Positions 12,787 through 63,483 of a stretch of 64,000 nt of DNA are shown in pieces; the first letter of the stretch is position 1, and each line of letters starts with the position of its first letter. Origin of the DNA: an uncultured Candidatus Rokubacteria bacterium (lineage in GTDB: Bacteria; Methylomirabilota; Methylomirabilia; Rokubacteriales; DASRDR01); assembly GCA_963749975.1 (NCBI GenBank), contig CAVVOZ010000025.1, positions 1 through 64,000 on the forward strand, read 5' to 3'. The notes under the pieces were generated by a model that searched no databases, had not been told where the DNA came from, and saw only the letters and a list, made by a program, of their open reading frames with translations. The position numbers and the translations under genes were made by a program.

Positions 12787-12827
12787 GGTGATCCAGTGAT
12801 CGGGCCGCTCATCCGCTGTCGTCTGGG

Positions 12828-20353: not shown

Positions 20354-20491
20354 GCCAAATCCTCGCGACCGAGCCGGACGCCTTACGCCCCTGCGATTAA
20401 CCGTGGGCCGACGGTCTCGTGGGCGGCCTTCGGAGACCTCCTGATGACCAGACCCACTTCGACCGGCAAGCTCCTCCCGATCGACATGCTC

Positions 20492-20779: not shown

Positions 20780-21267
20780 GGGCGTATCTCCTTTCCCGAG
20801 ACGGCGCCGGTAGGTCGACTCGCGGACCACGGTCTCGCGAGCCCGTAGCCGAATGGGTCCAGGGCCCGGTCGAGGATGCGACTGAACATTGCGCATCCTC
20901 TGAGGTCGCGTCCTTCAACTCTCACCCACGTCCTGACACGATCCAGGACCTCGCTGCCAGCAGGCATCTGCAGGTGTCCGCCGCCCTCAACTTCGTGTGA
21001 GAGCATGGTCACAAGGACCTGGTGCATGAACGTGGCCACGCGTAGCCGCGCGTCCGGGCGGAACACGGACATGAGATCGCTGTCAGGAGCGAGGCGTCGC
21101 GACCCCAGTGGGGCGGCGACGGGGCAGCTGCCGGCGCCGAAGCTCGCCGCGTCGGGCGTTTCCACGAGCGAGAGCCGCCGAAGCCCGCCTGGCGTGGGTG
21201 TTGCACCAAGGCGCTAGAAGCGCGGCCGCCGCTCTGCCGGCGACCTGAAATCTCAGGGAGGTGGACC

Positions 21268-21774
21268 ATGGGTAGAGGCTGGCTGTATCCAAGTGTTATC
21301 GCGGTAGTCCTGGTGGTGGGCGTTCCAGGCGCGGCCGTCGCCCAGGAGAAGTCGAAGCTCTCGGATCAGCTGATCGAGCAGCTCGCGACGGGACTCACGC
21401 GGATTGCCGAAGCCGGGAGTGCCCGGATGGCTGCCTACTTCACCGCGGAGCCCACACCCGAGGTCCGGGCGTATCTCGAGGGCCAGGGCGTCGAGGTCAT
21501 CGTCGCCGCTGCCGCCGCGCCGGCCCCGGCCGGGCCGCCGCCCGGCAGCCCGATGCCGCCGGCGCCGGGCTTCACCACGATGCCGGCGCCCGGCTCCGCT
21601 CCCGGCCCTTACGGGATGATGGGCATGCGGGTGCCCGAATCGAAGAAGATGATCCAGGATTTCCTCACGGGCGTGCGCGAGCTGGCAGCGAGCCTGCCGG
21701 CGGACAGCCCGCTCGCGATCGACGTATTCACGGTGGACCTGCCCGGGGGCAGCATCACGTTCCGGCTGCGGTAG
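21268..21774 (+). CDS. hypothetical secreted protein
   Basis: Signal peptide (VVLVVGVPGAAVAQE) and a Pro/Ala-rich linker. Confidence 0.5.
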   Translation: MGRGWLYPSVIAVVLVVGVPGAAVAQEKSKLSDQLIEQLATGLTRIAEAGSARMAAYFTAEPTPEVRAYLEGQGVEVIVAAAAAPAPAGPPPGSPMPPAPGFTTMPAPGSAPGPYGMMGMRVPESKKMIQDFLTGVRELAASLPADSPLAIDVFTVDLPGGSITFRLR

Positions 21775-32727: not shown

Positions 32728-32862
32728 CGTCGGGCGGCCCGCGGACGGGTGCCGCAATCCATCGGCCGTGGCGGCCGATTGGCGGCCGATCGGCGCCGCG
32801 GTCAGCTTCCGATCAGCCGGAGGACTGCCGCGGCCTATAATCGGGCGGAGGCAAGGACACGG

Positions 32863-47300: not shown

Positions 47301-47422
47301 GCGCGCTCGGGGAGCAGGAGGACGAGCAAGCCGATCAAGAGGAAGAGGACCGCCGCCCGTCGGGAAGCGTGGCGCGGGTTCCGGCTGCCGATGCGGGGTG
47401 GAGGCGTCGTTCCGGGGCTCAT
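44358..47422 (-). CDS. large secreted multidomain protein: signal peptide, LamG-like jelly roll, PQQ-dependent sugar dehydrogenase (SGDH)-like beta-propeller, and 3 tandem Ig-like (CARDB/NBR1-FW-like) domains. One 1-nt frame break at about 45410.
   Basis: The LamG region reads …DFTLEWWMRA…RIAFGVSVG…GRLRIYVDGVL…. The propeller reads GLLGLAFHPDYATNGYFFVYYT…HNGGGLVFGPDGYLYAAVGDGGGGGDP…GLRNPWRIGFD…. The C-terminus has three identical 120-aa repeats (…TVTNTGSLTWDANSAFRLAYHWYKGST…GTYTLQWDMV…). Confidence 0.75.
44399..45425 (-). repeat. 360-bp tandem repeat, about 2.85 copies, essentially 100% identical (one 1-nt deletion in the last copy)
   Basis: Blocks 44399-44750, 44751-45110 and 45111-45425 are identical in sequence; for example 'taggggcgagtcggagcggcgccgacgttgatggagacggccgccggggtcacgccctgg' recurs at +360. 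Confidence 0.85.
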
Positions 47423-48044
47423 TCTTTGCCAAGACGCCGCACAACCTTGGCAGGGGCTGCCACAGTCGGGCCGCATGCGGCCGACGCCCGAGCCCGGGCC
47501 TGGGTGGCGAAACGGCAAGAATGGTCGACGGTTCTGGCCGGCCTGGGCCACCGGTTCGGTCGACGGACCCCGCGCCCAGGCAGGCTGATGTCCATGGCGG
47601 CGGAATCCAATGCAGCGCTCATGCCAAGGGCCCCGCCCCGGCGGAGCTACGCTCGGCGAGGAGAGGCCAAATGGCTCCATCCGGGACGACGCCGTGAGGC
47701 CAGAAGCTGGGGAACTCCTCAGTTGCCAGGACTACGAGCCCGCGCTAAGTACACCGAATCATGAATTCGTTCCGGGTTTCGGCGCCGGCGCAGAGCCCGG
47801 GGCCCGCGAGCGATCAGGCCGGCCGCGTCGGTGAGTCGGGCTCGATGGGTCCCTGCGGTCCTTCGCCGGCGTCGAGCCACTCGAATATCGCGACTTCGAC
47901 GGAGCCTGGGGCTGCTGCGGACACCGCACGAGATCGCGACGTCGATGCGAGATTCGGGAAGGTGCTGCCGCACGACGTTGGCCCCGCCGGAGGGGGATGA
48001 CCTGGCCCTCATGGCCCACGGGATATGTCGTGGGTGGACGGGTA

Positions 48045-49100
48045 CTAGTCGTGATAGCGCGGATCGTTGTCCAGGCCATTGATCCGGACTAGCTCGCAGA
48101 GCGTAGACCGGATCGCCGCCTTGTCGTCCTCGGTGAGCACCCCGAACTCGAGCGAGACTGGCTCGCCCCTCGGCTCGGGCAGTTCGCTCGCGAAGAAGTC
48201 CAGGTAGGGGCGGAACCCAAGGTGTCCGGCCACCTCGAGCGCGGTCTGGTGAGCGCGTGTCGCGAGCTCGTGACTGATGACCGGGTAGCGCTCGCGATCC
48301 TCTGCGAAGCGGAGGTGCCTACCTTGCACCGCGGCCCAAAGGTGGTAGCGCCGGACGTCGAAACCAAGCTCCTGGGACAGCCGGCGGTGGTGAACGAGCG
48401 CTACCTGGCCCTTCAGGGAAAATGTCTCGTTGACGACGGGCGGCACCCTGGGACCCGCATATCGTCCAGCCGTGAGCCCGAGCGCATCGAGCATGGCCTC
48501 GAAGAAGTGCTGGGCTCGCTCGAACTTGACTAGGTGCACGGACTCGGGACCAAGCGTGTCCTGAACGAGCTGCAGGGTCTCGAACCACTCCGGCACGCGT
48601 TCCGTCGTGTAGCGCACGTATTCCGTCGGAGTCAACGTCAAGTCCGTCGACCGGATCTCCTGGCAGTAGACGGATTCGCAGTATTCATCGACGCGTCGCA
48701 AGGCGAAGACGAAACGCGTTCGGCGCCGGCGCTTCATCTCGCCGAGGAATTTCAGCAAGGTTCGCCGCTGCACTCCGAAGCCGTAGATGGCGGCCTCGGA
48801 TGAGACGATGACCTCGGCCCTCTCGGTCTCCAGGAATCGTAGGAACTCCGCCTCCAGGAAGCGCCGCTGCCGGCCGGACAGGACGTCGCGCACTAACGCG
48901 TGGTGGGCCAGGGCCTCGCTGTCTCTCCAGCGGTCCGGATAGACAAAGCCGGCGTCACGCAATACGGAGGGGTTCGCGGCGAGCAGCGTTTGCAGGGCCG
49001 TGGTCGCGGTCCGCGGCATACCGGCGTGAAGGTAGACCGTTTTGCCTCGGCTGGCTCGGAACCGCAGTATCCCGACGCCGAGGGCGGTCACGCGAGCCAT
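48045..49100 (-). CDS. sulfotransferase-family protein
   Basis: A 5'-PSB-like P-loop (VYLHAGMPRTATTALQ) sits near the N-terminus of a ~350-aa cytoplasmic protein. Confidence 0.65.
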   Translation of the reverse strand: MARVTALGVGILRFRASRGKTVYLHAGMPRTATTALQTLLAANPSVLRDAGFVYPDRWRDSEALAHHALVRDVLSGRQRRFLEAEFLRFLETERAEVIVSSEAAIYGFGVQRRTLLKFLGEMKRRRRTRFVFALRRVDEYCESVYCQEIRSTDLTLTPTEYVRYTTERVPEWFETLQLVQDTLGPESVHLVKFERAQHFFEAMLDALGLTAGRYAGPRVPPVVNETFSLKGQVALVHHRRLSQELGFDVRRYHLWAAVQGRHLRFAEDRERYPVISHELATRAHQTALEVAGHLGFRPYLDFFASELPEPRGEPVSLEFGVLTEDDKAAIRSTLCELVRINGLDNDPRYHD

Positions 49101-49331
49101 CCCTTATCCGGGTGGCTCACCGGATCGACTCGCCGACCGGCCCAAAATCCCCCCGATGGTTCGCCGTGCTGTGCGGGTGGCGCGCGTGGCGCGCCGACCA
49201 ACCAGGCGCAGGGTGCAGCGTTAGCATCCCAGCTTGCCTGGTCCGGCAGGAGTCCACCGTCTCGCGGTTGTGTGGAATGCGCCCGTGCACTGTTGACCAA
49301 TGTCCCACGGCAGGTCGCTGACCGCCAATTG

Positions 49332-50482
49332 TCATTCGGAGTGTGGTGGCCGGTGACCCCGCGACGGGGGACGCGACCCGTCCGGGCCCGGCTGGGTTCC
49401 GGGGCTCCCGGTCCGCGAGATGTCATCACGAGTCGGGGGGCGAGCCGAGGCGCTGAGGGTCCGGTGCGCGCACAGGAAGAAGCTCGACCCTCGATCGTGA
49501 GCCCGGGGATTCCCCGGGAGCTCGGCCCGGGCCTCCTCCAGGACGCGCCAGCCAAAGTCCTCGAGCCGGGTCCGGAGCCACGCGTGGGTGAAGCGGCACC
49601 CATGCTGCCAGCCCCTGGCCGGCTGCACGAAGTAGCCGGGGTCCTCGGTCTCCAGCGTGACCACGCTCTGGACGACGAGATAGTCGCGGACGATCGGTTT
49701 CACGGCCTGAAGGAGTCGGGCCGGGTCGCTCACGTGATAGAGCCCGCCGGCGCACAGCACGAGATCGTAGGCGCGATTCGACCGGCCGACGAATGACCAC
49801 ACGTCCGCCTGGTGGAAGGTCACATCGCGGAACGCCAGCCGGCGGGTGATGGTCTCGGCGCGCCGGACCTGCTCGGGGTCGAGCTCCACGCCCGTGACCC
49901 TCGCCCGGGGCGACAGCGCCTTGATCCGGCAGCTGTAGTAGCCGTCGGCGCTGAACAGCTCCAGGCAGTCCGGACCGGGGCCGAGGCCCGCGAGGGCGCG
50001 AGCGACGAGCCTCATGAGGTGGTGTTCCTTGACCGGCTGGTTGAGGAGATGCGAGGTGGGAGCACGTCGCAGCACGTCTCGAATCGAGCGGGGCCGCTCC
50101 CGGGGGACCGGGGTGGTGCGCCGGCCTCGGAGGAGCCGCATCAAGGCAGGAGGCGAGTCACCTCGTAGGCCAGACGAACTCGCTCCTCGAGGGTGAAGGG
50201 GACCCCGAGGAAGGCCGTGTCGAAGCCGAGCGAGCTGAAGTCGTGGTACCAGGGTCGCAGCGCGTAGAGCTCGGGGTCGACCTGAGACAAGTGGGTCTCC
50301 CAGTGTCCTCTCGCGAGGACGCGGAACTCGGTCCCCAGCACATATAGTGCGAAACCGCACGCCACACAACCGGCCACCACTGGCGGCGGGACGGGACGCA
50401 GGGAGGCCGTGCGGGGACGCGCTCTCCGGATCGTCCAGTAGACGTGACCGCGGCTCACCGGGTCGAGAGTCAGGTGCCGCAT
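49332..50482 (-). CDS. class I SAM-dependent methyltransferase (CmoB/DUF1698-like N-terminus); frame change near 50140
   Basis: …LRPWYHDFSSLGFDTAFLGVPFTLEERVRLAYEV… in ORF 50141..50545, then …DCLELFSADGYYSCRIK…YDLVLCAGGLYHVSDP…. The C-terminal boundary is uncertain. Confidence 0.5.
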
Positions 50483-50585
50483 CGCCTGGTGCGCCGAGCG
50501 GGCTGTGCTAGACTCGGGCGAGCAGCAATATGGTAGCGGTCTCACGGCGGCCTATCGCCTCGGTGGCCGTGCGCAGGAGCCGGCA

Positions 50586-51731
50586 ATGGAGGGGACGTTG
50601 GCGGTGAAAGTGCCCCTCAACGATCCGGGTCGGATCTTCGCCGAGTTCCGGGACGAGTTGACGAACGCCATATCGACCACGCTCGGCTCCGGCCGATGGT
50701 TGACTGGGCCGCGGATCGAGGCGTTCGCCGCGTCCTTCCGCCGCTATGTCGGCGACCGACCATTGCGTTCCTGTGGCCAACGGCACCGACGCGCTCGAAC
50801 TGGCGATGCGGGCGCTGCTCCACAACCGGCGCGCCCGCGGGCGCGAGGCGATCACGGTGGCCAATGCGGGCGGCTACGCCGTTACCGCGTGCCGTCTGGT
50901 CGGACTGACGCCAGTCTTCGCGGACATCGACGCGACACACGCAACTGATGTGCATTCCCGCGGCGGTCGCCGCGCTACGGTCCGGAGACGGCGCTGATCG
51001 TGGCCACCCATCTGTATGGATCGATCGTCGACGTTGCGGCTCTTCGCCGGGCGGTGGACGCGGCAGGCTTTGGACATGTGCCGATCCTCGAGGACTGTGC
51101 GCAGGCTCATGGCGGTCGGCTCGGCGGAGCGCCGTGCAGGCTCGCTCGGCGACGTCGCGACGTTCAGTTTCTATCCAACAAAGAACCTGCCGGCAATGGG
51201 CGACGCCGGAGCGGTCGTGACCTCGGATGCGGAGCTCAACGCGACGCTGCGCCGACTCCATCAGTACGGCTGGTCCGAGAGGTATCGAGTGACGATCCCC
51301 GGCGGTCGGAACTCGCGTATGGACGAGATGCAGGCGGCAGTGCTCACGACCTTGCTGCCGTACCTGGACGAGATGAACGCGCGGCGACGCGCCATCCTCG
51401 CGGCCTACCGGCAGGCCGGCGCGTGACCGACTGTGTTTTCTTGCGGACGACGATGGATCGGCGGCTCATCTCGCCGTCGGGCTATCGGACAGGCGCGATG
51501 AAGTCCAGAGGTTCATGTCCGAGCGAGGAATCGCGACGGACGTCCATTACCCGATTCTCGACTGCGACCAGAGCGGCTGGAGTGATCTGCCGCAACGGAT
51601 CGGCCCGGAGGGCTTGAATGTCTCTCGGCAGGCCGTCGCTCGGATCGTCACGTCTTCCGTGCTTTCCATCGATGACCGAGGAGGAGATAGAGTGGGTCGT
51701 CGAGGCGGTGCAAGCGTGGACGGCGCGATGA
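50586..51731 (+). CDS. DegT/DnrJ/EryC1/StrS-family PLP-dependent sugar aminotransferase (FdtB/QdtB-like); at least 4 frame corrections needed
   Basis: …ANGTDALELAMRAL…ATHLYGSIVD…ILEDCAQAHGG…SLGDVATFSFYPTKNLPAMGDAGAV…, …GIATDVHYPI…, and the C-terminal …LPCFPSMTEEEIEWVVEAVQAW in a shifted frame. Confidence 0.7.
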
Positions 51732-52719
51732 AGGATGTCCCGGAGTCGCTCGGAGGCCGAGACGCTCTCGAGGGGCAGGCGACGGGCCGCGGCGTTCGCT
51801 GGTCATCCCGGTCTATCGGAATGCTGAGACGATCGCCCCGCTGATCGATGCGCTGATCGAGCTGAGCCGCACCCTGGGGCCGCATCTCGAGATCGTCTTC
51901 GTGATCGATGGTTCGCCCGACGACTCGGCCGCGCGGCTGATCGACGCGACGGAAGCGCCTGCCGTGCCCATCGAAGATCGTGTTTCACAGCCGCAACTTC
52001 GGGTCGTTCACGGCGATCCGTACGGGCCTCGAGCTGTCCGGCGGCGACCACTTCGCTGCGATGGCGGCGGACCTGCAGGAGCCGCCCGAGCTTGATCGTC
52101 TCGTTTTTCGACCGACTGGAGAAGGACGAGGCCGACATCATATTCGGCCAGCGCATTGGACGCGACGATCCCCCGCTCCGTGCATTCGTCTCGAATCTGT
52201 TCTGGTGGGCGTACCGTCAACTGGTGCTTGCCGGACATCCCGAGAGGCGGGGTCGATCTCTTCGCGTGCAACCGGCGGGTTCGCGACGAGATCCTGCAGA
52301 TCGCGGAGCCGAACAGCTCGCTGATCGCGCAGCTCTTCTGGGTTGGCTTTCGGCGGAGCTTCGTGCCCTACGTCCGCCGGCGGCGCGCGCACGGCAAGAG
52401 CGGGTGGAGCTACTCGCGCCGCCTTCGCTACATGATGGACAGTATCTGCTCCTTCTCCGACGCGCCGATCCAGTTCGTGCTCGGGCTCGGGCTGTTCGGG
52501 TGCGCCGTCAGCATCGTCCTTGGCGGTGACCACCTTCTTCGCACGGCTAGCCGGACTGATTCACGAGCCAGGCTATGCGAGCCTGTTCCTCGTGATCCTC
52601 TTCTTCGGCTCGGCCATTCTGGTCGCGCAGGGGATCGTCGGCTCCTATGTGTGGCGCGCGTTCGAGAACACCAAGAAGAGACCGCTCCGGATCATCTCGC
52701 GCGTGATCTCGGACTGACT
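51727..52719 (+). CDS. GT2 polyprenyl-phosphate hexose transferase (GtrB/ArnC-like); multiple frame corrections needed
   Basis: …LVIPVYRNAETIAPLIDAL…LEIVFVIDGSPDDSAARL…VVLHSRNFGSFTAIRTGLELSGGDHFAAMAADLQEPPEL…. The C-terminus has 2 TM helices (…GYASLFLVILFFGSAILVAQGIVGSYV…). Confidence 0.7.
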
Positions 52720-52733
52720 GCCGATGAACGCGA

Positions 52734-53200
52734 GCGAGGCGATCCCCGGCGTGTTCGTCCACGAGCGGGGACTCTGCGAGAGCCGGTCGGTCGGCGCGGA
52801 ACCCGGATCTGGGCCTTCGCTCATGTGCTCCCCGGCGCTCGTATCGGCCGGGACTGCAACATCTGTGACCACGTCTTCATCGAGAACGACGTGATCGTCG
52901 GCGACGCCGTGACCGTGAAGTCCGGCGTCCAGCTGTGGGACGGTGTGCGGCTGGGCAACCGGGTCTTCGTCGGGCCCAACGCCACGTTCACGAACGACGT
53001 CGTTCCCCCGATCGAAGCGGCAGCCGGAGCGCTTCGCCGAGACGGTGATCGAGGACGATGCGTCGATCGGCGCCAACGCCACGATCCTTCCCGGGTCTCA
53101 GGATTGGCCGGGGGGCGATGATCGGGGCCGGCGCGGTGGTGACCAGGAACGTGCCCGCCCATGCCGTCGTCGTCGGGAATCCGGCAGTGATCAGGGGATA
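52734..53200 (+). CDS. left-handed beta-helix (hexapeptide-repeat) acyl/acetyltransferase, FdtC/WxcM N-domain-like; frame corrections needed; 3' end uncertain
   Basis: …[60 protein letters not shown]… …[12 protein letters not shown]… …[23 protein letters not shown]…. Confidence 0.6.
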
Positions 53201-53334
53201 TGACATCGGCCGGGCCTGGACAAGGACGCGAGGCGCGGCCGGCTCCGACGGGATGCGCTCGCGCCAAGGCGGGGACCAGGGTGGCGGTGGGCGTCGGAGG
53301 GTGCGCGCTCTGGCGCCTCCCGCATTTCGCCGAC

Positions 53335-53704
53335 ATGCGGGGCGAACTCGCGCCGCTCGAGTTCGGGACCGACCTGCCGTTCAGGCCGCAGCGGTCGTTT
53401 CTGGTCTATGGCGTGCCGAGCGAGGACGTCCGCGGCGAGCACGCTCACCGCGCGCTGCGAGCAGCTCCTGGTCGCGGCGCACGGCCGCCTCTCGGTGCTT
53501 CTCGACGACGGACGGTCGCGAACCGTCGTCGTGCTCGACGACCCGACCCTCGGCCTTTACGTGCCCCCGATGATCTGGGCGATCCAGCACAACTTCGAAG
53601 CGGACGCGGTGCTCCTCGTCTTCGCCTCGGAGCCATATGACGCCGACGACTACATCCGCGACTACGAGGTCTTCCTGGCCGCCGTGACCTCGAAACGCTC
53701 GTGA
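53335..53704 (+). CDS. FdtA/QdtA-like sugar 3,4-ketoisomerase (WxcM-like C-terminal cupin domain); one frame correction near 53450
   Basis: …[19 protein letters not shown]… then …[71 protein letters not shown]…. It may be fused to the upstream acetyltransferase, as in WxcM. Confidence 0.65.
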
Positions 53705-53812
53705 ACGACGGGCCGAGGCAGGTCGCTGCCCGTGTCGGCATTGGTGCCGGCGCGGCGTGACCGCGGCGCCGGGACGGATCCGACGCCGATCGCTCCGACG
53801 AGCGTGGGCGCG

Positions 53813-54289
53813 ATGAAGCTCTCGGTGGTGATCCTGAACTGGAACGCGCTCGAGGACACCGCGGCGTGCGTTCGCGCGGTGCAGGGGTGGGAGGCGACGG
53901 GCGTCGTCGAGCGACCGACGATCTGGGTGGTCGACAACGGCTCACGCCCGCCCGGCGTCGAGCCGCTGTGCCTGGAGTATCCTGACGTGAACGTCATCCG
54001 GAGCCCGGCGAATCGCGGGTTCGCGGGAGGGAACAACCTCGGCATCGAGGCGGCCCTCGCCAGCGGCGCCGACGCGGTTCTCCTGCTCAACAACGACGCC
54101 GCCCTGGACGCGAGGAGCGTCGCGGCGATATGCGAGACGCCGGGGTCCAACGGGTACGCGTGCTGGCTCGTGCGGGCCGGCCTGACGGCCGGGCAGGCGC
54201 TGTGGCGGCGGGCTCGGGCGGCCGCGCTGGGGGGGCTTGACGGAGTCCGTGGCCGGTTCTCGGGGCAGAACCAGCGAGTGCTCTCGTGA
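53813..54289 (+). CDS. GT2-family glycosyltransferase, N-terminal part (apparently truncated or frameshifted)
   Basis: MKLSVVILNWNALEDTAACV…VVDNGSRPPG…ANRGFAGGNNLGI…VLLLNNDA…. Confidence 0.55.
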   Translation: MKLSVVILNWNALEDTAACVRAVQGWEATGVVERPTIWVVDNGSRPPGVEPLCLEYPDVNVIRSPANRGFAGGNNLGIEAALASGADAVLLLNNDAALDARSVAAICETPGSNGYACWLVRAGLTAGQALWRRARAAALGGLDGVRGRFSGQNQRVLS

Positions 54290-54399
54290 CGGCTCGGGTG
54301 GGCCGCCGCCACGAGGGGGTCGTGCACCGGCCGCGACGTCAGTGCGGCACGACCCGACCGATCCAGGCGATGAGCGGCTGGACGGGCGGTCGGGACGGT

Positions 54400-55425
54400 T
54401 GCGGCGCTGAGGGTCCTCTATCTTCTGACGACACCGCCGCCGGTCGTAGCCGGGACCGACGCGGTGGTGCAGGAGGTCGACCTGCTGCGCAAACGGTTCG
54501 GCGGCGAGGCAATCTACCTGCGTCCGTCGTGGCGGGCTCGCGCCTGGTATCCGAGCCGGCTCCTCGGGCTCCATCGCCTCCGGGCCATCAGGCGGCGGGA
54601 CAGGGACGTCGACCTTCACCACGTCTACGCCTCTCAGCTCTTCGACTTGCCCCTGCTGCGCCTCGTCGAGCGGCCCGTCGTCTACACGGTCACCTCGGGC
54701 GTGGGGCCCGCGCACCGGATGCCACCAGTGTCCTATCTGCGTCGACTGCGGGCGATCGTGGTCCCGGGTCGGGCCGATCTGGATGCCCTGACGCGGCTCG
54801 GGCTGGAGAACGTGTGCGTGGTCCCGCCGGGCATCGACGTGAGCCCATTCATCGACACGCCCGCACCGTCTGGATCGGAGTTCATCCTGCTCGCGGGCTC
54901 CGCGCCGTGGGCGCGCCAGCAGTTCCGGACCAAGGGCGTCGACGCCCTGCTCGCGCGTGGCGCGCGCAGATGGAGGACGTACGCCTGGTGTTCCTGTGGC
55001 GAGGGCGTGCTGCTCCGCGGAGCTGATCGCGCGGGTGAGGGACGCAGGGCTGGCCGAGCGAGTGGAGATTCTCCGGGACCGGGTCGACGTGAGCCGGGTG
55101 CTGACGCGGGTCCACGCGGCAGTGGTGCTCGCGGAAGGGCCCGGGCTCGTCAAGGCGTACCCGCACTCGCTCCTGGAGGCCCTCGCCGCTGGCCGACCAG
55201 TCGTGATCAGCGATGGGAACCCGATGGCCGCAGTACGTCCAGGCGACGCGGTGTGGCTGCGTCGTGCAGGGCGTGGACCAGGCGAGCCTGGGCCAAGCCA
55301 TTCGGGAGCTCCGGCGGAACTACGGCGTATACCGCGCGCACGCCACCGAGGTGGGAAAGCGGGACTTCTCGCAGGAGGCGCTCGTCTCCGCGTACCGCGA
55401 TCTGTACTGTGGGCTCGTCGGCTGA
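54400..55425 (+). CDS. GT4 (glycosyltransferase family 1 fold) protein, spread over at least 3 frames
   Basis: …LRVLYLLTTPPPVVAGTDAVVQEVDLL…, …GSAPWARQQFRTKGVDALL…, and …LVKAYPHSLLEALAAGRPVVISDG… (the EX7E-like region). Confidence 0.55.
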
Positions 55426-55701
55426 GGATCGGGCGCGCGATGGGCACCAAGCCGGGAGAGAGCCCATGCGGGGCGGCGCCGGGCCACGGTGTTCGAGGTC
55501 GCCAATGAGCATTCAACTGGTCGCCTTAGGCAAATGCCGAGCAACTTGGCGTAGCGGGGATCGCATCGCTTGTACCGGCCCTACTTGGTCTCATCCTCAT
55601 CCACGGGCCGTTGTTGCGGCCGGAACTCTTCTATGCTCCATGGCACCCCGATGACTTTCGCGCGCTGACGGGAGACCTGGCGCGGCACCCCCATCCGTCC
55701 C

Positions 55702-57027
55702 GTGTCATCACGGTTTGTGTATCACTTCGGAAAGCTCGGGGAGGCCTCATACTACACACTCTTTGTTCTCGTGTGGATGTTTGCCCTGATACTGACATGC
55801 GCTTTGGCTTGTCGGGTGTTCGGGCTCGCGGCGCGGCTGAGGCGTTTCATGTGTCTGACGTTCGTAGGCTCTTTCATCTGGTATGCGCAAGCGGCCTCGT
55901 TTCAGAACGTGCAGTATCTGGGCCTCGTCCCGAACAGCGTGTCGTACTTATCGGGTGTCTCCGCGGCAATCGCCTTGTTGGGTCTCACGGACGGATGGCG
56001 CGGCGTGTGGAACTCGCGGCTAGGCTTGGTCGTGTTCGCCGCGCTGACAATCGTCTCAGCGTTCGCGAAGGAGGACATGCCCGTCTTTCTGCTCGCGACT
56101 GCGATCTACGGAGGCGTCCGTCTCCGTATGCAGGGTGTGGCGCGTGATGAAGCAGTGCGCTTCTCTGCCGTCGCGGCTGGCGTCATCTGCGGCAGCTACG
56201 CGCTATCGTTCGCGTCCGCCATCCGAAACGCGTCCCCCTTTATCGGCAACATGAGTGGCAGCGGACCATACGATCTCAGCAACATATGGGTGAACATCCC
56301 AAGAAACGTCTGGTTCTACGTGACGATCTCCCCCGCAACGATTCTGCTGGTGAGTGGGTTCGCAATCGCCGCGACCGTGGCAGCCTTGCGGCCACTGCGC
56401 CCATTCACTGCCGCCATAGTCTTCGTGTTCGTGTCGTTCTTCGCATTAATGGCGCCGTACCTCATACTTCCACGGCACTTTGATTTCTACGCGATGAACT
56501 TCGTGCCAATCCTGGCGTTCAGCGTGGCGCCGGTCATGATGATCGCCTGCAGTGAAAGGATCCGTCCAGCCGCGGTGCGAACACTAGTCGCATTGGCGTT
56601 GATCGTAGCCGTCATGGCCACCCTGTATTGGGTTGACTACCGTCCGCGGTACAATTCTCTCTACTGGATACGGCACATTCGGGAAATGGCGAAGCGCCAG
56701 CTTGACGAGGTGCAGCGTGCCGGCGATCTTGGACTGCGGGCCTGCTCATCGGTGCGGGTGACTGGTGCAACGGACCTCGGCCCGTTCCTGGATGGGTCTG
56801 CCGCCTATCTCACGAGAGGGCTTGGCCGCCGGCTTCGCTGGACGATCGTGACTGAGCCGGGAACACGTATCGATGGTTGGTCCAGGAGCCGACCCTTCCG
56901 GGACACAAACTGGCGCTATGTCGCTGGGGGCGAGGCCGGTCCTCCGTTGCCGAGCGAGTGCCGGCTCGTCTTTGACCCGAAGACATTGCGGGCAACCTTC
57001 TATCCCGCTCAGGGCGCCGGTAGCTGA
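55702..57027 (+). CDS. polytopic membrane protein (about 10-11 TM plus a ~120-aa C-terminal soluble domain); putative glycan polymerase or GT-C-type transferase; lower GC than the flanks
   Basis: 441-aa ORF with many hydrophobic helices. GC is visibly lower than the neighbouring genes. Confidence 0.6.
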   Translation: MSSRFVYHFGKLGEASYYTLFVLVWMFALILTCALACRVFGLAARLRRFMCLTFVGSFIWYAQAASFQNVQYLGLVPNSVSYLSGVSAAIALLGLTDGWRGVWNSRLGLVVFAALTIVSAFAKEDMPVFLLATAIYGGVRLRMQGVARDEAVRFSAVAAGVICGSYALSFASAIRNASPFIGNMSGSGPYDLSNIWVNIPRNVWFYVTISPATILLVSGFAIAATVAALRPLRPFTAAIVFVFVSFFALMAPYLILPRHFDFYAMNFVPILAFSVAPVMMIACSERIRPAAVRTLVALALIVAVMATLYWVDYRPRYNSLYWIRHIREMAKRQLDEVQRAGDLGLRACSSVRVTGATDLGPFLDGSAAYLTRGLGRRLRWTIVTEPGTRIDGWSRSRPFRDTNWRYVAGGEAGPPLPSECRLVFDPKTLRATFYPAQGAGS

Positions 57028-57029
57028 AG

Positions 57030-59034
57030 AGAGCCGGGCTGCCGTCGGCGCCGGCGGCGGTTCGGAGAGCCGGGTGGCCTTGCGGGTCTTCCGCGCGATT
57101 ATGGCGAACTGAGGATCGCCGTAGTAGCGAAGCCGCCGCGACCAGTAGGTGACCACCTCCGCCTGCGCGAAGCGATCCGCGGGTGCCCATCGGCTCCTAC
57201 AGCAAGTCAGGCGTTCCGGTGCCTTCTGCGCGATCAGAAGCACCTGTGGATCGCCGTAGTAGCGAAGCTGCCGGGACCAATATGTGACCACTTCCGGCTG
57301 CGTAAAGCCGACGCTCCTCAGGTCGTCCAGGAGACGCCAGCCGAAGGTTCGAAATGCCAGGGATCCAGCCTTGTTCACCGGATTGCCATGGTACTCAGGC
57401 TCCATGAGATGTGTGACCATACCGCGTCCGTCCATCACTGCCCTGACCTGGTACTCGTGGTGGTCAACCGAGAAGGGCGCGGTGAGCAGGAGATAGCCTT
57501 CGGGGCGAAGAGTCCGAAAGAATTCTCGCAGCGCCTGATGTTCATCACCGACGTGTTCCAGCACGTCGAATGACAGGATGTAGTCGAAGGCTCCGTCGGG
57601 GAAGGAGAGTGCCTGGATGTCTTCGTGTCGAATGCCATCGACCACGGTGCCGTGCTGGTGCGCTGCGCCGAGATACTCGCTTCCCACGATGTTGGGGAAG
57701 CGCTGTTTCAGGCTCGCGAAGAGGGACGTGACCTGCTCGGTGATGTAGATGCGACTGTCGGCCCTGGGCCGGATCTCCTGGCGGAAGATCTGGAACGCGC
57801 CGCGGAGCCGCGTCACCAGACGGCAGCCGAGACAGTCGAGATGTTCGCGCCAGTTCGGTATTGCTCGGCCGTCTGGCAGGTTGCGCTGTGAGTACATCGC
57901 GCTGACGCGGAAGTCGCTAGGCTCCTCGCAGAAGGCGCAGAACCCGGAAAGGGTGAACACGTTAGCGGCCGGGATGTCGAGTGTCTCGACAGCGAGGCGC
58001 CTCGCAGAAACCGCCTGGGACACGGTGCGCCACGCCTGATAGTCATCCTGGCTCGACCAGCGCATCACGGGAAGATACGGAACCGCACTGTCGGGCTCCC
58101 GACGGCCAGCCGCCACCGCGGGCGGGGTGTGAGGATTCTGGCCGCTCGCACCCAGCCAACCGAAGGCGTACGGAATTGCCTTGAAGTACCCATGCCCCCG
58201 TGCGATCACTCGGGCGCGGTATTCGTCCAGCAAGGCGCGGAGCCCCCCAATGTTGTGGGCTTCGAACTGGGTGCTGTGACGAGAAAAGACGTCTTCGTCC
58301 TCGATCTTGTTTCCGCTGAAGTGGACAAACCGCAGCGGGCGATCGTTGACGAGCCAGGAGTCCTCGACTCGCGACACCCGACGCTGAGCAAGGTTCCAGT
58401 AGCCGACGTTGTACCCGGGGTGACGCAAGAGGACAGAGCGCTCGATGAACGCCGGAAGCAAGTCTGCCCACTTCTGGTCGACGAACAGGCCGCTGTCGAG
58501 GTCGATGGTGCAGTGGAACTCGAGTCGTCGTGCCCACCACCAGACGGCGCGCCGCACCTCCGGAGTGTCGCGAAGGGTGCAAAAACCGAGATTGTTGATT
58601 CCGTAGCGGAGAGCCTGCTGATCGCCGAACTCCGCGTATTCCGCCGGTTCGGTGATGTGGGGGGTCAGGACGCATTCCACCCCGCTCTTCAGGAGGTCCA
58701 GCAGCTCGGCGAATCGGCTCACGACCAGAATATCAGGATCGAGGTACAGCACCGTCTCGCCGGGATGGAGGTCAAACAGAGAGAGGAAGGCGAACGGCTT
58801 CAGAGCCGTGTTGAGCTCGGTGATGTTGTACCGCTCGCTCATGGCCTCGAAATTGGGCACACTCAGATCGTCGGGACTCAAGATCTGGAACGGGAAGGCG
58901 TCCGCGTCGAAATCGGTGGGCTCGTCCGCGAGGATCGCATAGAAGGGCACTTCGGGGTGAAAGTGCCTGAAGGTGTCGTGGAGCGTCTGCGTGTAGCCAT
59001 AGAAGTTTCGAGAGCTGATCGTGAACGCGATCAT
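57030..59034 (-). CDS. bifunctional GT-A-fold glycosyltransferase (DxD) plus class I SAM-methyltransferase fusion; the 3' end is uncertain and overlaps a duplicated segment
   Basis: N-terminus: …FYAILADEPTDFD…VLYLDPDILVV…. C-terminus: …AFDYILSFDVLEHVGDEH…LRPEGYLLLTAPF…. It starts at an ATGA overlap with the upstream GT4 stop. The C-terminal ~30 aa (…VVTYWSR(Q/R)LRYYGDPQ…IA(Q/R)K) occur twice. Confidence 0.6.
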
Positions 59035-60240
59035 TCCCGGGTCGTCGACACGGTACGTGGCGATGACTCGGCGCTGACGTGCTGACCGGTCGGCGCCCCG
59101 ATGGCGCGAAGGGTGCTGATCAACTGGCGCGCTCCGACCTCGAGGGAGTGGGTCCGGGCCACCCAGGCCATGCCGCAGTTGGACAGCGATGCCCACCTGA
59201 CGGGATCAGCGTAGAGGTCCAGGACTGCCGCGGCGAAGGACTTGGGATCATTGGCGACCACGATCTCCTCTCCGGTGAATCCCATGCCTTCGGCCGCGAT
59301 CTGGGTGAGGACGCAGGGGACGCCATGAGCGAGACTGGTAATCACCTTGCCCTTGGCGCCAGCTCCGTAACGCAGGGGCGCAACAGTGAGGCGAACTTGC
59401 GCAAGCCGGGTCGATAGGTCCTGCACATGTCCGATCGGCACGAAGCCAGGGTCCGAGCGGGCGGATAGGGACTCGGGGATGTCCGGTCCGATAGCATAGA
59501 AACACATGCCTGGGGACGATGCTCGAATCAGAGGCCAGATCTCGTCGAGGAAGTACTCGACCGCATCCACGTTGGGGCGGTGAAGAAACCCTCCGAGAAA
59601 GGCCAGGCCGCTCCGACGTTCGTAGCCATGCGTGCACCCAGGGACATCATGCATCAGGGGCATCCAGACGACGCATGCGCCCGGAGCTGCTGACTCGAGC
59701 AGCGACTTCTCGGCCGTCGACACGACGAACGTCGCGTCGGCCATTCGCGCCACGTAAATCTCGCGTTCCCGGGTCGCCATGGCGCGGTACATCGCTATTC
59801 GATTATGCGACAGCGTGGCCTCTCGCTCCTCCCTCAGCCAATGAAGATCGACGGTGTTGAAGAGCACCTTCGCCTTGACGCAGTAGTGGCGCACGTCATC
59901 GATGTATGTCCCACCGGAGTCGACTCTCGACAGTAACGCCACATCGACACGACTGCCGATACGCGCGAGAAACTCGGGGATCGACCGAGTGTACGCTCGA
60001 CGCGGGACCGTCACGCCCAGCGCCAGAAGCCGCTGCGGATCGCCAATCGACGTTCCACCGGCAGCCGGCACGTAGATCACGTGATAGCCGAGGGCCTGAA
60101 ATAGCCTCACGAAGTTCAGCGCGAGGATCGAACCGGCGTCACGGTCCGGACGCGGGTAGTCGTCGTCGATGGCGAGAACCACTGGCGCATGCTCCGGGAC
60201 GCCGGCTAATGGACCGGGGCCCAGGACTACACGCTCCATC
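59031..60240 (-). CDS. GT4 glycosyltransferase
   Basis: …VVLAIDDDYPRPDRDAGS… at the N-terminus. …GAKGKVITSLAHGVPCVLTQIAAEGMGFTGEEIVVANDPKSFAAAV… at the C-terminus. Confidence 0.7.
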
Positions 60241-60399
60241 TGGTGCCGCAGTCTCGACCGGGTCGGGGCGGGGTCGGAGTGTCGGCCACGCGCGGGAGCC
60301 AGGAGCGCCCGCGCGAGAGCCATTGGGCGAGGGGAGGCGGCGCTCCCGCATCCCGTGCTTCAGGTAGTGAAGGAGTGGATTCACACCCGCGTCGCGTAC

Positions 60400-60780
60400 A
60401 TCCGGGTACCTTGATCGGTACCAGGCAGACCGGAATAGCGGACTGGGATCGCGCCCCTCGAATCCGCCATAGAAGTAGTAATGATCCAGAGGGTTGAGCG
60501 ACTTGGCGGCCGCGACATCCGCGTAGGTTCGGAGATACCAGGAAGTCCGGAATAGGGCGTTCGGGTTTCGACCCTCGGTGACCCCGTGCCGTCGGTAGTG
60601 GCGCTCCGGATGAACTCCGGCGCGCGCGACATCCGGGTATTGCGCGAGATAGAAGTGGCTATCAAACAGCGGGTTGTGCCAGGAGTAGGAGAGCACCGGT
60701 TCCGGGATCGTTCGCACGAGGATCCGGCTGGCGACGTCGCGCCCTGTCCGAAGACGATTCCGCCAGCGCCATTGGTTCAC
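60400..60780 (-). CDS. protein with 3 tandem ~35-aa repeats (F..xYLxxYPDVAxAGVxPxxHYxxHGxxEGRxP); possibly the N-terminal module of the downstream GT4
   Basis: FDSHFYLAQYPDVARAGVHPERHYRRHGVTEGRNP, FRTSWYLRTYADVAAAKSLNPLDHYYFYGGFEGRDP and FRSAWYRSRYPDVRDAGVNPLLHYLKHGMRERRLP. The 3' end is unclear, with ORF overlap. Confidence 0.45.
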
Positions 60781-60867
60781 GATGAGGCACCCTGCGCGAA
60801 ACTCGCCGCTCGCCCGTGGAGGTTACCCACCATGGTGCTCGTTGTCAGTGCCCCGCAGACCACACCG

Positions 60868-61890
60868 TCACGCCGGCCGCCGCCCCTTCCTGAGTCGTCG
60901 GCGGAACTTTCGGGCGAAGGGGTAGGGCTGGAGCCAGCTGCGCAGGCCCGCGTCAGTGCCGACCAGGCGGCGGCTCTGAATCTGCCGCCGGGTGGACATG
61001 GCATGGGGCAGGAAGCGCAGCATGTCAACGTATCCAGAGAGTCCTGTCGGGTGACTGAACCCATAGTCAACGAACCGGAGAATCTCCGTGATGAGGATCG
61101 CGCCCAGATCCGGGAGGAGGTCCGCCGGCCGGTCATTGCGTAGCATCATCAGATAGCGGTTCTTCAGCGAGTGGTGGATTTCGAGCACGCTTTGCCGCCA
61201 CCGGTCGCCCCTGTGTCCGCGCTCGTGCTCAGCGATCGCGGCGGGGACGTAGTAGGCCTTCCAGCCGCGAAGGCGTGCGCGCCAGTCGAGATCAACGTCC
61301 TCTAGATAGGCGAAGAACGTCGAATCGAAGTATTCGTTGCCGAGTCGCACGTCGTCGAGCATCGCGCGCCGATACAGAGCTGCCGCCGCACACACGCCGA
61401 ACACCTCGCCGGCAGAATCGTATTGGCCGTGATCGGGCTCGTTTTCCCCTCTGTTCGCCGCCACGCGGTTGCGGTGGAGTACGTGGCCCGTCGAGTCGAG
61501 AAGGGCAACCTCGCCGCCGCGAGCCGGCCGGAGCAGCTTACCGGTCACACTTCCAATGGTGGGATCGGCTTCCGCCGCCCGCTCCAGGCGCTCGATGTAG
61601 CGGGGCTGGAGATACGCGTCGGGGTTGAGCAGCAAGACGTAGGGCGTCGGCGTTCGCCGGATTAGTTCATTGGCAGCTTGCGCGAAGCCGACGTTCTCCG
61701 AAGCGCGCATGACCACCGTCGCCCCCAGCTGCTCGGCCAATGCGGCTGACTCGTCGCGGGAGGCATTGTCCCACACGAGGATGCGAGCGGGCCTCCAGGT
61801 CTGAGTACCGAGCGCGTCGAGGCATCGACGGAGGTACCGCTGGCTGTTGTACGTCACGATGCAGGCGGTGACCTTCTCGGTCACGGCCGC
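60868..61890 (-). CDS. GT2 glycosyltransferase (rhamnosyltransferase-like)
   Basis: …VTACIVTYNSQRYLRRCLDAL…ILVWDNASRDES…VLLLNPDAYL…YFDSTFFAYLEDVDLDWR…. Confidence 0.75.
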   Translation of the reverse strand, partial: AAVTEKVTACIVTYNSQRYLRRCLDALGTQTWRPARILVWDNASRDESAALAEQLGATVVMRASENVGFAQAANELIRRTPTPYVLLLNPDAYLQPRYIERLERAAEADPTIGSVTGKLLRPARGGEVALLDSTGHVLHRNRVAANRGENEPDHGQYDSAGEVFGVCAAAALYRRAMLDDVRLGNEYFDSTFFAYLEDVDLDWRARLRGWKAYYVPAAIAEHERGHRGDRWRQSVLEIHHSLKNRYLMMLRNDRPADLLPDLGAILITEILRFVDYGFSHPTGLSGYVDMLRFLPHAMSTRRQIQSRRLVGTDAGLRSWLQPYPFARKFRRRLRKGRRPA

Positions 61891-62540
61891 CATGTCCCGC
61901 GTCCGTCCGGCCTGTTGGGGGATGTTGGGTCCTGAGTGGTGGGAGGCCGGAAGACCTGGCCAGTCTGGGACTGCACGCGGGGCGCGTCGGCGAGCACGGC
62001 CAGCGCGAAGGCCAGCCCCAGCGTGAAGACCAGGTGCGACACGAGCACCGGCAGCACGAGCGCCATCCGCCACGAGGGATCGATGCCCGAGACGATCATG
62101 AGCGTCGGGAGGAACACCGCCAGCGCCAGCAGGAACTGGGTGAACGCGAACAGCACCGACGCGATCGGAAGGATCTCCCGAGGGAAGTACACTCTTCTGA
62201 TCAGGCCGGCGTTCTCCACGATGACCTGGGTCGAGGTCCTACGGGCGCCCGCAAAGAAGATCCAGGGCAGCAGGCCAGCCATGACGAAGTACGGGTAGTT
62301 CTCCGTCTGGACCCGCAGAACAATCTTGAACGCGAAGATGTAAGTGGCCAGCATGAGGGCCGGCTTCAGAAGCGACCGGGCAAACCCGAGGAAGGAGCCG
62401 CGGTATTTGAGCTTGAGGTCCTTGGCGACCAGACTCCCGAGGAGGAACCGGTAGCGGAAGAGGCCGGGCGTCTCCAGGGGTGCTGCACCCCCAAGGCTCG
62501 GAGTCACCGGGGCGTTGGTCACTCCACGGCCCGTGGGCAC
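61881..62540 (-). CDS. ABC-2 type polysaccharide/O-antigen export permease (Wzm-like); appears 3'-truncated or frameshifted
   Basis: …LLGSLVAKDLKLKYRGSFLGFARSLLKPALMLATYIFAFKIV… plus about 5 TM helices. The usual C-terminal ~50 aa are not found, and no cognate Wzt ATPase gene is adjacent. Confidence 0.6.
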   Translation of the reverse strand: MPTGRGVTNAPVTPSLGGAAPLETPGLFRYRFLLGSLVAKDLKLKYRGSFLGFARSLLKPALMLATYIFAFKIVLRVQTENYPYFVMAGLLPWIFFAGARRTSTQVIVENAGLIRRVYFPREILPIASVLFAFTQFLLALAVFLPTLMIVSGIDPSWRMALVLPVLVSHLVFTLGLAFALAVLADAPRVQSQTGQVFRPPTTQDPTSPNRPDGRGTWRP

Positions 62541-62544
62541 GAGC

Positions 62545-63483
62545 CTAGCGACGCGCTGCCCACAGCGCCTGGACGGACCGTAGCGCCAGACTGGCCAGGA
62601 GTCCAGCCCCCACCAGGATCGTCCGCGGGTGGACTGCCGAAAGCACGCGGTGCTTGCGGTAGTAGCGATAGGCGCTCACGTGGAAGTCCAGGACGGAGCC
62701 CAGCGGACGTCCCGCCCGGCTGACTCCGACTAGATGCGTGCCGCTTGCTGCCGGCACGTAGTAGACACCCCAGCCAGCCCGTCGAAAGCGGAGGCACCAG
62801 TCCGCGTCCTCCCAGAAGAGGAAGAACCGCTCGTCGAGGAGCCCGACTTGCTCCCACGCTGTCCGGCGCACGAGGAGACAGGCGCCGGACAGCCAGTCGA
62901 CCGGGACCGGCGCGTCGCCCGCGGCCGAGAGAGCGGGCAGCTCGCGCTTGCTCACGGGGTTGTTGGGAAACAGTCGGGTCAGCGGCGCGGACCGCCCGAA
63001 CAGGGCAGTCCAGGCGGAAGGGTCCCGGCGGGCGGAGCCTTGCACCGTCCCGTCGGGATCGAGCAGCCTTGGGCCCGCGATGCCCGCTTCCGGGTGGGTG
63101 ATCATGAACTGCATCAGCCGGGACAGGCTCGTCGGGTGGAGGATGACGTCCGGGTTCAGGACCAGGGCGAACTGGCCCTTCGCCGCCCGGAGTCCCTGAT
63201 TCACTCCGCGCGCGAAGCCGACGTTCTTGGCGTTTTGGATGACTTCGAGTGCCGGATACGCGGAGGTCAGCCCGGTCTGGCTTCCGTCCGTCGACGCGTT
63301 GTCGACGAGGATGACCTGATGCGGCTCCTCCCCCTCGCTGGTGAAAAGCGCGGTGAGGCAGGCGCGCAGCGCTGCGCCTGCATTCCAGTTCACGATGACG
63401 ACTGAGACGTGCTCTATTGGGGCACCGTCGATCGTCGGCCGAGGTCTCGAACATCTATCATCAGATTCCCTCAACTGGACCAT
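62545..63483 (-). CDS. GT2 glycosyltransferase
   Basis: …VSVVIVNWNAGAALRACL…VILVDNASTDGS…NAKNVGFARGVNQGL…ALVLNPDVIL…FFLFWEDADWCLR…. Confidence 0.8.
   Translation of the reverse strand: MVQLRESDDRCSRPRPTIDGAPIEHVSVVIVNWNAGAALRACLTALFTSEGEEPHQVILVDNASTDGSQTGLTSAYPALEVIQNAKNVGFARGVNQGLRAAKGQFALVLNPDVILHPTSLSRLMQFMITHPEAGIAGPRLLDPDGTVQGSARRDPSAWTALFGRSAPLTRLFPNNPVSKRELPALSAAGDAPVPVDWLSGACLLVRRTAWEQVGLLDERFFLFWEDADWCLRFRRAGWGVYYVPAASGTHLVGVSRAGRPLGSVLDFHVSAYRYYRKHRVLSAVHPRTILVGAGLLASLALRSVQALWAARR

Follow-up and report, generated by a model that had tools for sequence, protein, structure and literature searches.

Gene content of the locus

The 64,000-nucleotide (nt) stretch of contig CAVVOZ010000025.1 analyzed here (the window), from an uncultured Candidatus Rokubacteria bacterium, carries at 48045-63483 a group of glycosyltransferase (GT), methyltransferase and sugar-modification genes, which a preliminary description had taken for a glycan locus combining a 3-acetamido-3,6-dideoxyhexose cassette with a sulfotransferase. 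The window has a GC content of about 70%, and raw lists of open reading frames (ORFs) are therefore crowded with spurious frames. We assigned coding frames from plots of GC content at the third codon position (GC3 frame plots) and from stop-to-stop translations, stitched the frame segments together by eye, and then scanned the products against Pfam and NCBIfam profiles. All of the genes previously listed were present at roughly the positions given for them, and the locus is a genuine surface-polysaccharide cluster, a mosaic of familiar module types and not a new kind of system. The coding strand is minus at 48-50.5 kb and 56.7-63.6 kb, and plus at 50.5-57 kb.

On the first minus-strand segment, an intact ORF of 351 amino acids (aa) with a weak match to Sulfotransfer_3 (48045-49100) encodes a sulfotransferase candidate of an orphan family, and upstream of it on the same strand lies the gene for a class I methyltransferase dependent on S-adenosylmethionine (49332-50482, within a unit delimited as 49101-50482; Methyltransf_31, _23 and _25), with a frame that is broken near 50134-50157. 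The plus-strand arm begins with a WxcK/FdtB-like sugar C-3 aminotransferase of the DegT family (50586-51731; PF01041, 260.7 bits after stitching), a WxcL/GtrB/ArnC-type family 2 GT (GT2) with two C-terminal transmembrane (TM) helices (51728-52720; PF00535), and a bifunctional enzyme of the WxcM/FdtD type (52724-53704), made up of a Hexapep domain (52724-53201) and an FdtA domain (53296-53704). These are followed by the N-terminal half of another GT2 (53813-54289; GT2 profile positions 1-96 of 168), a family 4 GT (GT4) with frame breaks (54374-55425; Glyco_trans_1_4 and Glycos_transf_1), and a polytopic membrane protein of about 505 aa with no family match (55505-57027), present where a low-GC gene of this kind had been reported and with a GC content of 0.605.

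The second minus-strand segment encodes a fusion of a GT8-like GT-A domain, a four-cysteine cluster and a class I methyltransferase, with a true length of about 612 aa (57196-59034); a GT4 of about 561 aa with an N-terminal repeat domain (59031-60717; Glyco_trans_1_4, repeats at 60300-60717); an intact GT2 (60868-61893; PF00535, E 1.7e-19); a 213-aa remnant of Wzm, the type 2 permease of an ATP-binding cassette (ABC) transporter (61881-62522; ABC2_membrane at 26.7 bits, cutoff 26.9); and a further intact GT2 (62545-63483; PF00535, E 9e-22), with which the locus ends beside a RodZ-like gene.

Frameshifts and structural lesions

Frame correction, thought necessary from the start, was indeed needed: the stretch from 50.1 to 55.7 kb has no fewer than 25 single-base frame breaks, and between 50.6 and 55.7 kb the coding frame shifts every 100-300 nt. 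Once corrected, the frames upheld by profile annotation the aminotransferase, GtrB/ArnC-type GT2, acetyltransferase and FdtA isomerase families. Sister assemblies were found through cluster look-ups of the 351-aa and fusion proteins; one of them, L086 (ENA contig_78748), matches the window at 98.9% identity over 57.2-64 kb, and the fusion proteins of the two are 100% identical. In L086 the genes are intact, with lengths of 373 aa for the aminotransferase, 327 aa for the cassette GT2, 323 aa for the protein joining Hexapep and FdtA domains, 287 aa for the GT4, 505 aa for the membrane protein, 612 aa for the fusion, 561 aa for the repeat-bearing GT4 and 312 aa for the terminal GT2. Alignment with L086 showed that nearly all frame breaks consist of one surplus base in the window. 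In the aminotransferase gene these fall at 50759, 50933, 50978, 51126, 51421 and 51651, and in the GT4 gene at 54956, 54965, 55006, 55017 and 55228; the GT2, WxcM-like and membrane-protein genes also carry surplus bases, and the repeat-GT4 gene is split by a surplus C at 60281. No stop codons are found in the corrected frame. The window alleles of the variable arm are 89-94% identical to those of L086, and in four gene comparisons the mismatches lie at third codon positions in 40 of 56, 42 of 55, 50 of 73 and 60 of 91 cases, while synonymous and non-synonymous differences in four genes number 34 and 18, 42 and 12, 47 and 20, and 53 and 27.

If the frameshifts were instead genuine, the variable arm (aminotransferase, GT2, WxcM-like enzyme, GT4, membrane protein and methyltransferase) would be a recently inactivated cluster decaying after the loss of its ABC exporter. 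Such decay would fit the crowding of the breaks, of which the remaining 47 kb has only a few, the true structural lesions in the same locus (a wzm/wzt deletion and a GT2 stump, described below), and the fragmented genes found here in assemblies L084 and L085 as well. It is hard to square with breaks that are nearly all single-base insertions and bring no in-frame stops, or with the excess of third-position and synonymous differences from intact L086 alleles, which is unlike neutral drift toward decay. The indels also differ in position between assemblies, those of L085 lying at other sites than those of the window, and in some 1-kb bins they outnumber the mismatches: between the window and L084 we found 234 gap openings in 19 kb, with 27 indels against 11 mismatches in one such bin. 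Housekeeping genes are likewise hit, with the gene for an NfeD-like protease at 1990-3394 (frames 0, 2, 1), an M16 peptidase gene at ~30.9-31.0 kb and a rhomboid protease gene at ~32.3 kb all split over frames, and the genes of the arm are intact both in L086 and in a contig from the Joint Genome Institute (JGI). We dropped the pseudogenization reading after the comparison with L086 and L085 and the codon-position analysis, and consider it very unlikely. Because the L086 ORFs are intact and the substitutions relative to L086 are mostly synonymous, we attribute the small frameshifts to errors of long-read assembly, crowded into a stretch that varies between strains, and conclude that the genes of the arm, as judged from their sequences, should be functional.

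The surplus bases do not sit in obvious homopolymers; they coincide with a stretch of 6-12% strain divergence, and we suspect a consensus or polishing artifact arising from mixed strains. One related locus, L001, belongs by its name to a metagenome-assembled genome (MAG) of the Microflora Danica project, and the sister contigs share its contig_N naming style. The assemblies of that project were built with Flye from Nanopore reads only and polished once with Medaka (PMC12313526). Where strains vary, dense frameshifts in long-read metagenomes can mimic pseudogenization, and comparison with sister assemblies together with codon-position statistics separates the two.

The JGI contig had been considered as a near-identical allele of the window locus and was rejected: its WxcM-like protein fell outside the best 120 matches (down to 62% identity), and the fusion proteins share only 82% identity. 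Being diverged, it supports the gene architecture and not the sequence.

A second set of lesions, the Wzm truncation with the loss of wzt and the GT2 stump, is probably real because it recurs in independent assemblies; single-base errors could not produce it. The Wzm permease of the preliminary description is present as a gene, and its product is a truncated remnant that covers ABC2_membrane positions 4-169 of 211 and lacks about 79 C-terminal residues found in L001; the GT2 gene at 60868-61893 starts 13 nt before the Wzm stop. At the same point, L001 has 79 further Wzm residues and a 260-aa Wzt ATPase, about 1 kb in all, while in L086 and a Logan contig Wzm is cut to the same 213 aa and wzt is missing. 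The window lineage has thus probably lost all of wzt and the 3′ part of wzm by deletion, and this exporter loss is the real peculiarity of the locus. With the exporter deleted, export would have to proceed through a transporter encoded elsewhere, or else the pathway is partly disabled.

At 53.8 kb, the GT2 family assignment held and the full gene did not, since only 96 of the 168 profile positions are covered. L084, L086 and the Logan contig share this stump (158 aa in L084, 124 aa in L086), whereas the JGI relative has a full 323-aa GT2 there; we regard the stump as probably a pseudogene. Between the arm and the minus-strand genes, the 3′ end of the fusion gene is present twice in partial form (57244-57294 and 57109-57159, minus strand), the copies being drawn from its last 50-120 nt. 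Single-base errors could not produce this feature either. In L084, about 1.4 kb lies between such copies (443-2030) and holds a 234-aa ORF of no known family. We read the copies as a probable scar of recombination at the border of conserved core and variable arm.

The acetamido-sugar cassette and its predicted route

The aminotransferase carries the lysine motif SFYPTKN and reaches no NCBIfam equivalog cutoff. Its best matches in the PDB are DesV, QdtB and WlaRG-type C-3 aminotransferases (QdtB-type 3frk, E 2e-50), with DesV and QdtB being enzymes that we take to act at C-3, and the window enzyme is accordingly predicted to be WxcK/FdtB-like and to aminate the same position. The isomerase domain matches PF05523 at 155 bits over positions 3-130 of 131, has the catalytic His-x-His, and aligns with 4zu4 (E 1.4e-39) and with FdtA 2pa7 (E 8e-27) with VRGEHAH in register. 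It matches both FdtA-type and QdtA-type enzymes, and the product may be galacto or gluco. The acetyltransferase domain (Hexapep, 81.7 bits) is closest to the N-domain of FdtD (E 5e-53) and to the 165-aa N-acetyltransferase 7s43 (E 2e-52), with weaker matches to WlbB (E 7e-29) and QdtC 3fs8 (E 1.5e-13). The earlier label of an FdtC/QdtC-type acetyltransferase is therefore not retained, given how far the QdtC match falls behind that to FdtD.

Both halves of the bifunctional enzyme find their best PDB match in 4mzu, the acetyltransferase over residues 2-149 (E 5e-53) and the isomerase over residues 176-298 (E 9e-39); we take 4mzu to be FdtD, the bifunctional ketoisomerase/N-acetyltransferase of Shewanella denitrificans. 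Since intact orthologues in L086 (323 aa) and the JGI relative (324 aa) also carry both domains, the supposedly separate FdtC and FdtA genes are two domains of a single WxcM/FdtD-type gene. The stitched protein has thousands of homologues of 316-325 aa, at no more than 72% identity, under the NCBI name 'WxcM-like domain-containing protein'. The Fdt-like trio proposed at the outset thus stands as to its families and not as three separate genes, and with isomerase, aminotransferase and acetyltransferase families all encoded, so does the prediction of a 3-acetamido-3,6-dideoxyhexose linked to deoxythymidine diphosphate (dTDP), of either the galactose (Fuc3NAc) or the glucose (Qui3NAc) configuration.

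The gene order points away from a free-standing Fdt pathway: the sequence of aminotransferase, GT2 and bifunctional enzyme is that of wxcK-wxcL-wxcM, and we verified that the aminotransferase stop overlaps the GT2 start as ATGA at 51728-51731. For region 3 of the Xanthomonas O-antigen cluster (wxcK, wxcL, wxcM, wxcN, wxcO), the predicted role is synthesis and transfer of the Fuc3NAc side branches, and side chains are missing from a wxcK mutant (PMC12573098). The wxc cluster of X. campestris and X. hortorum, which also holds wzm, wzt and wxcA-E, resembles the window locus in its wxcK-wxcL-wxcM order, its linkage to wzm and several GT2 and GT4 genes, and its predicted Fuc3NAc side branch (PMC12573098), a likeness of gene order and description and not of direct sequence comparison. 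The window differs in having no GtrA-like wxcN, no gmd/rmd and no wzt, a truncated wzm, and a membrane protein of an unrelated, rare family; it adds the methyltransferase/sulfotransferase pair and the fusion of GT8-like and methyltransferase domains, and comes from another, Rokubacteria-like phylum.

Compared with FdtD of S. denitrificans (4mzu, 4zu4; Chantigian, Thoden and Holden 2013, reference 26 of PMC9271549), the window enzyme has the same N-terminal left-handed β-helix (LbH) N-acetyltransferase and C-terminal cupin 3,4-ketoisomerase and keeps RGEHAH, while its gene is broken by surplus bases. The FdtA/B/C and QdtA/B/C enzymes for the S-layer glycans of Aneurinibacillus and Thermoanaerobacterium carry out the same three chemical steps with homologous isomerases and aminotransferases; in the window, the acetyltransferase is fused to the isomerase and lies nearer to the FdtD N-domain, 7s43 and WlbB than to QdtC.

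GT2 enzymes of the GtrB/ArnC/PgfS type load sugars onto polyprenyl phosphate. The cassette GT2 aligns over its full length with PgfS (4-303 of 308, E 1e-40) and ArnC (9-313 of 316, E 5e-31), scoring under the equivalog cutoffs of both models, and its hydrophobic C-terminal segments are present, in agreement with the GtrB/ArnC-type assignment made before. This GT2 type and the wxcKLM gene order together make lipid-linked addition of a side branch the most likely use of the cassette. In the cytoplasm, the ketoisomerase domain of the WxcM-like enzyme would turn dTDP-4-keto-6-deoxyglucose into the 3-keto sugar, C-3 would be aminated by the WxcK-like enzyme, and the acetyltransferase domain would complete dTDP-Fuc3NAc or dTDP-Qui3NAc. 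By analogy with Xanthomonas wxc and the Gtr and Arn systems, the GT2 would load this sugar onto undecaprenyl phosphate (Und-P); the lipid-linked sugar would then be flipped, and the polytopic membrane protein may add it as a side branch outside the membrane.

The family of this membrane protein is rare (51 representatives among 1.84 billion proteins), and the protein has the conserved acidic motifs PWHxDDF and KED. Neither it nor 31 relatives matched a Pfam or NCBIfam family, and its comparison by hhalign with the GtrII protein of locus L003 (Chloroflexia) and with the membrane protein of L001 found no relationship. By analogy, it is a candidate GT-C-like transferase for the lipid-linked sugar. 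The GtrA/B/C and ArnC/ArnT systems share with the window the full-length likeness of the GT2, its C-terminal TM pair and a polytopic membrane protein nearby; the window lacks GtrA, its membrane protein matches no Pfam family, and the GT2 scores stay under equivalog level.

A simpler scheme would have a cytoplasmic FdtA/B/C pathway feed dTDP-Fuc3NAc or dTDP-Qui3NAc to Leloir GT2 and GT4 enzymes that build a sulfated, methylated main chain, with no lipid-linked side-branch step. In its favor, the locus encodes the isomerase, the aminotransferase and the acetyltransferase that it calls for, along with several soluble enzymes of the GT2 and GT4 families, and we found no GtrA and no recognizable GT-C member. 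We nevertheless judge this scheme unlikely: the alignments of the cassette GT2 with PgfS and ArnC run from end to end, it possesses the TM pair at its C-terminus, and its gene begins within the stop of the aminotransferase gene. The same K-L-M order occurs in the Xanthomonas region with the predicted side-branch role, where the wxcK mutant loses its branches, and L003 couples the cassette with GtrA and GtrII.

Side-branch addition to an exported glycan can also be set against the idea that, with the exporter lost, the remaining sugar enzymes, Und-P GT2 and membrane transferase form a stand-alone unit that glycosylates some other acceptor in the periplasm, for example peptidoglycan, lipid A or a protein, as PgfS/PgfM or ArnC/ArnT do. 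The GT2 is nearest to PgfS (protein glycosylation) and ArnC (lipid A modification), and the shortened Wzm and the missing wzt are constant over assemblies while the cassette is under purifying selection. The cassette is, however, linked to the GT2/GT4/fusion core, relatives of which usually have Wzm and Wzt; a second transporter may be encoded elsewhere in the genome, and we identified no acceptor candidate. Such a unit therefore seems to us quite unlikely, and we retain side-branch addition as the preferred role of the cassette.

For the 351-aa protein, we observed a sulfotransferase fold and the motifs GMP(R/K)TAT(T/S) and RRxDE(Y)xESxY, and found 8 relatives. It has no NCBIfam match and no PDB sequence match, and exact look-ups of this product and of the window GT4 product returned no record. 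The protein had been called a sulfotransferase with the proviso that it might prove an unrelated ATPase; the sulfotransferase assignment is upheld at the level of fold and motifs, and its gene likely encodes a putative sulfotransferase dependent on 3′-phosphoadenosine-5′-phosphosulfate (PAPS). Next to PAPS-dependent sulfotransferases (the NDST1 domain, 3-OST, TPST; Sulfotransfer_3) it is about 10% identical, stays below the Pfam gathering score, and differs at its C-terminus, where about 130 additional residues form a helical region. The best NCBIfam match of the partner methyltransferase is TIGR04290, alongside the generic Pfam families given above. It had been described as CmoB-like; the CmoB model TIGR00452 matches marginally (E 2.4e-4, 20 bits, cutoff 275) over about 100 residues (148-249), and we call it a generic class I enzyme instead. 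In the JGI relative this methyltransferase is intact (393 aa) and overlaps the start of the sulfotransferase gene. The divergently transcribed pair would probably decorate the glycan or its precursor in the cytoplasm. A combination of sulfation and methylation is rare, with each module recurring in other loci, and a sulfated and methylated product is a hypothetical prediction.

Conserved core, related loci and surroundings

The N-terminal domain of the fusion protein is GT8-like, with a GT-A fold and a DxD motif, and the C-terminal part is a methyltransferase domain by Pfam; comparison of the N-terminal domain with PDB sequences gave nothing useful. The reported coupling of the fusion and GT4 genes was confirmed, with the ATGA overlap verified at 59031-59034. 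In the window, an 11-13-nt indel at 57217-57220, as compared with L086, L084 and P0016, abolishes the stop, and the fusion ORF runs on to 762 aa, whereas in other assemblies the identical protein is complete at 612 aa; the extension (56746-57220, about 150 aa) reaches about 280 nt into the convergent membrane-protein gene. Inspection of the tandem-repeat module, previously listed as a separate unit, showed it to be the N-terminal domain of the GT4 protein, with three repeats of about 38 aa; this repeat-GT4 is a single ORF in L001 (592 aa stop to stop) as in L086. The GT2 at 60868-61893 is 99.7% identical to that of L086 and has 75% aa identity to that of L001, and the GT2 at 62545-63483 is likewise 75% identical to its L001 counterpart.

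Taken together, the minus-strand core at 57.2-63.5 kb (GT2, Wzm remnant, GT2, repeat-GT4 and fusion) would form the cytoplasmic assembly line of an ABC-transporter-type glycan, in which the fusion would most plausibly add and O-methylate the terminal residue as a chain cap. The analogy is with WbdD of Escherichia coli O8/O9a and WsaE of Geobacillus stearothermophilus, which we take to be chain-terminating methyltransferase enzymes. Like these, the fusion joins a methyltransferase to another catalytic domain beside polymerizing GTs and Wzm/Wzt, a likeness of architecture only, and it differs in its GT8-like domain and four-cysteine cluster.

A genome scan with the fusion protein identified L001, in a Candidatus Rokubacteria MAG, as a syntenic locus with 56-75% protein identity per gene (longest aligned segments) in which the GT4, repeat-GT4, fusion, GT2, Wzm and Wzt genes are all intact. 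The window GT4 at 54374-55425 aligns with its intact L001 orthologue over three frames at 60-82% identity per segment. On the minus strand of L001 at 18890-21744, we also noted a Sulfotransfer_3 protein (57 bits), a fusion of GT2 and Sulfotransfer_3, ORFs resembling epimerases or dehydratases of the short-chain dehydrogenase/reductase (SDR) type, and a further methyltransferase; sulfotransferases therefore recur in such loci within the phylum. L003 has the same cassette together with GtrA, a GtrII-type membrane transferase, Wzm/Wzt, an adjacent RmlA, the fusion, and a Sulfotransfer_2 protein.

Among 80 surveyed loci that carry the fusion family, a related GT4 was present in 65 and Wzt in 39, whereas 15 had a sulfotransferase-like gene, 4 a WxcM-like gene, and one (L003) both. 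The core thus belongs with ABC-transporter-type glycan synthesis, and the sulfotransferase and Fuc3NAc modules are interchangeable accessories, uncommon together and not unique. The core of GT4 and fusion occurs in many phyla, with members of the fusion family in Aminobacter, Afipia and Lysobacter, and the Xanthomonas-type Fuc3NAc side-branch module is exchanged onto it as a cassette. Surface-glycan loci of uncultured soil phyla are essentially uncharacterized, and this one draws attention to three families, those of the orphan sulfotransferase, of the rare membrane protein that is a transferase candidate, and of the widespread fusion. We also entertain, as a tentative possibility on the doubtful side, that the sulfotransferase-fold protein and its partner methyltransferase decorate a glycan branched with Fuc3NAc or Qui3NAc, that the 505-aa protein founds a GT-C-like family, and that the fusion is an unrecognized chain-capping enzyme.

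Overall, we consider it fairly probable that this is a modular cell-surface glycan locus of the O-antigen or S-layer-glycan type, with long-read insertion errors in its strain-variable part. A number of observations weigh against this reading. The insertion-only bias and local clustering of the errors are only partly explained, and the origin of the window in a Nanopore/Flye assembly is one that we infer. Searches by tblastn over the whole 64 kb gave no match to RmlA, RmlB, Wzt or GtrA (none better than E 0.3 for RmlA and RmlB), as the preliminary description had stated for RmlA/B and Wzt; genes for RmlA and RmlB may lie elsewhere in the genome, and those for PAPS synthesis are not in the window either. 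The GtrA query from L003 found no WxcN-like flippase, nor does L086 have such a gene call, and we detected no resemblance of the membrane protein to GtrC, GtrII or DUF6311 proteins; the Und-P route is read from GT2 type and gene order. The Sulfotransfer_3 match of the 351-aa protein (E 2.9e-4, 21.6 bits) is under the Pfam cutoff of 27, and Foldseek gave no decisive match. With its defective exporter, the locus may make no finished surface polymer, and functions in the organism are read from the genes alone.

Beyond the locus, a gene of the phosphoglucomutase/phosphomannomutase family is located 14 kb upstream (32728-34281, plus strand), its product having the full set of four PGM_PMM domains; it could supply sugar-1-phosphate precursors, a housekeeping role as GlmM or phosphoglucomutase being more likely. 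The region upstream of 44.3 kb also holds an EPSP-synthase-family gene, a histidine kinase, M16 peptidases, NAD kinase, a RecN/SMC-type ATPase and two mobile elements; SMC and SecA, both among the gene calls of L081 and L084, fall at ~38-44.3 kb when these two are aligned with the window. The stretch between the SMC and sulfotransferase genes is variable: the window has an ORF with N_BRCA1_IG domains and a LamG/GSDH protein (45371-47680), and JGI relatives have PhyH instead. Inside the former ORF (44361-45974, minus strand, with Ig-like N_BRCA1_IG domains) lies a tandem repeat (44391-45421) of 2.9 copies of a 360-nt unit at 99% identity. Of the mobile elements, the group II intron (9278-11067) has Rfam domains D1-D4 at 9278-9414 (112.8 bits) and a reverse transcriptase/maturase ORF at 9700-11067 (RVT_1 and GIIM); it lies just downstream of tRNA-Ala(CGC) (7337-7413) and adjoins an IS110-family transposase gene (11527-13029, minus strand; DEDD_Tnp_IS110 and Transposase_20).

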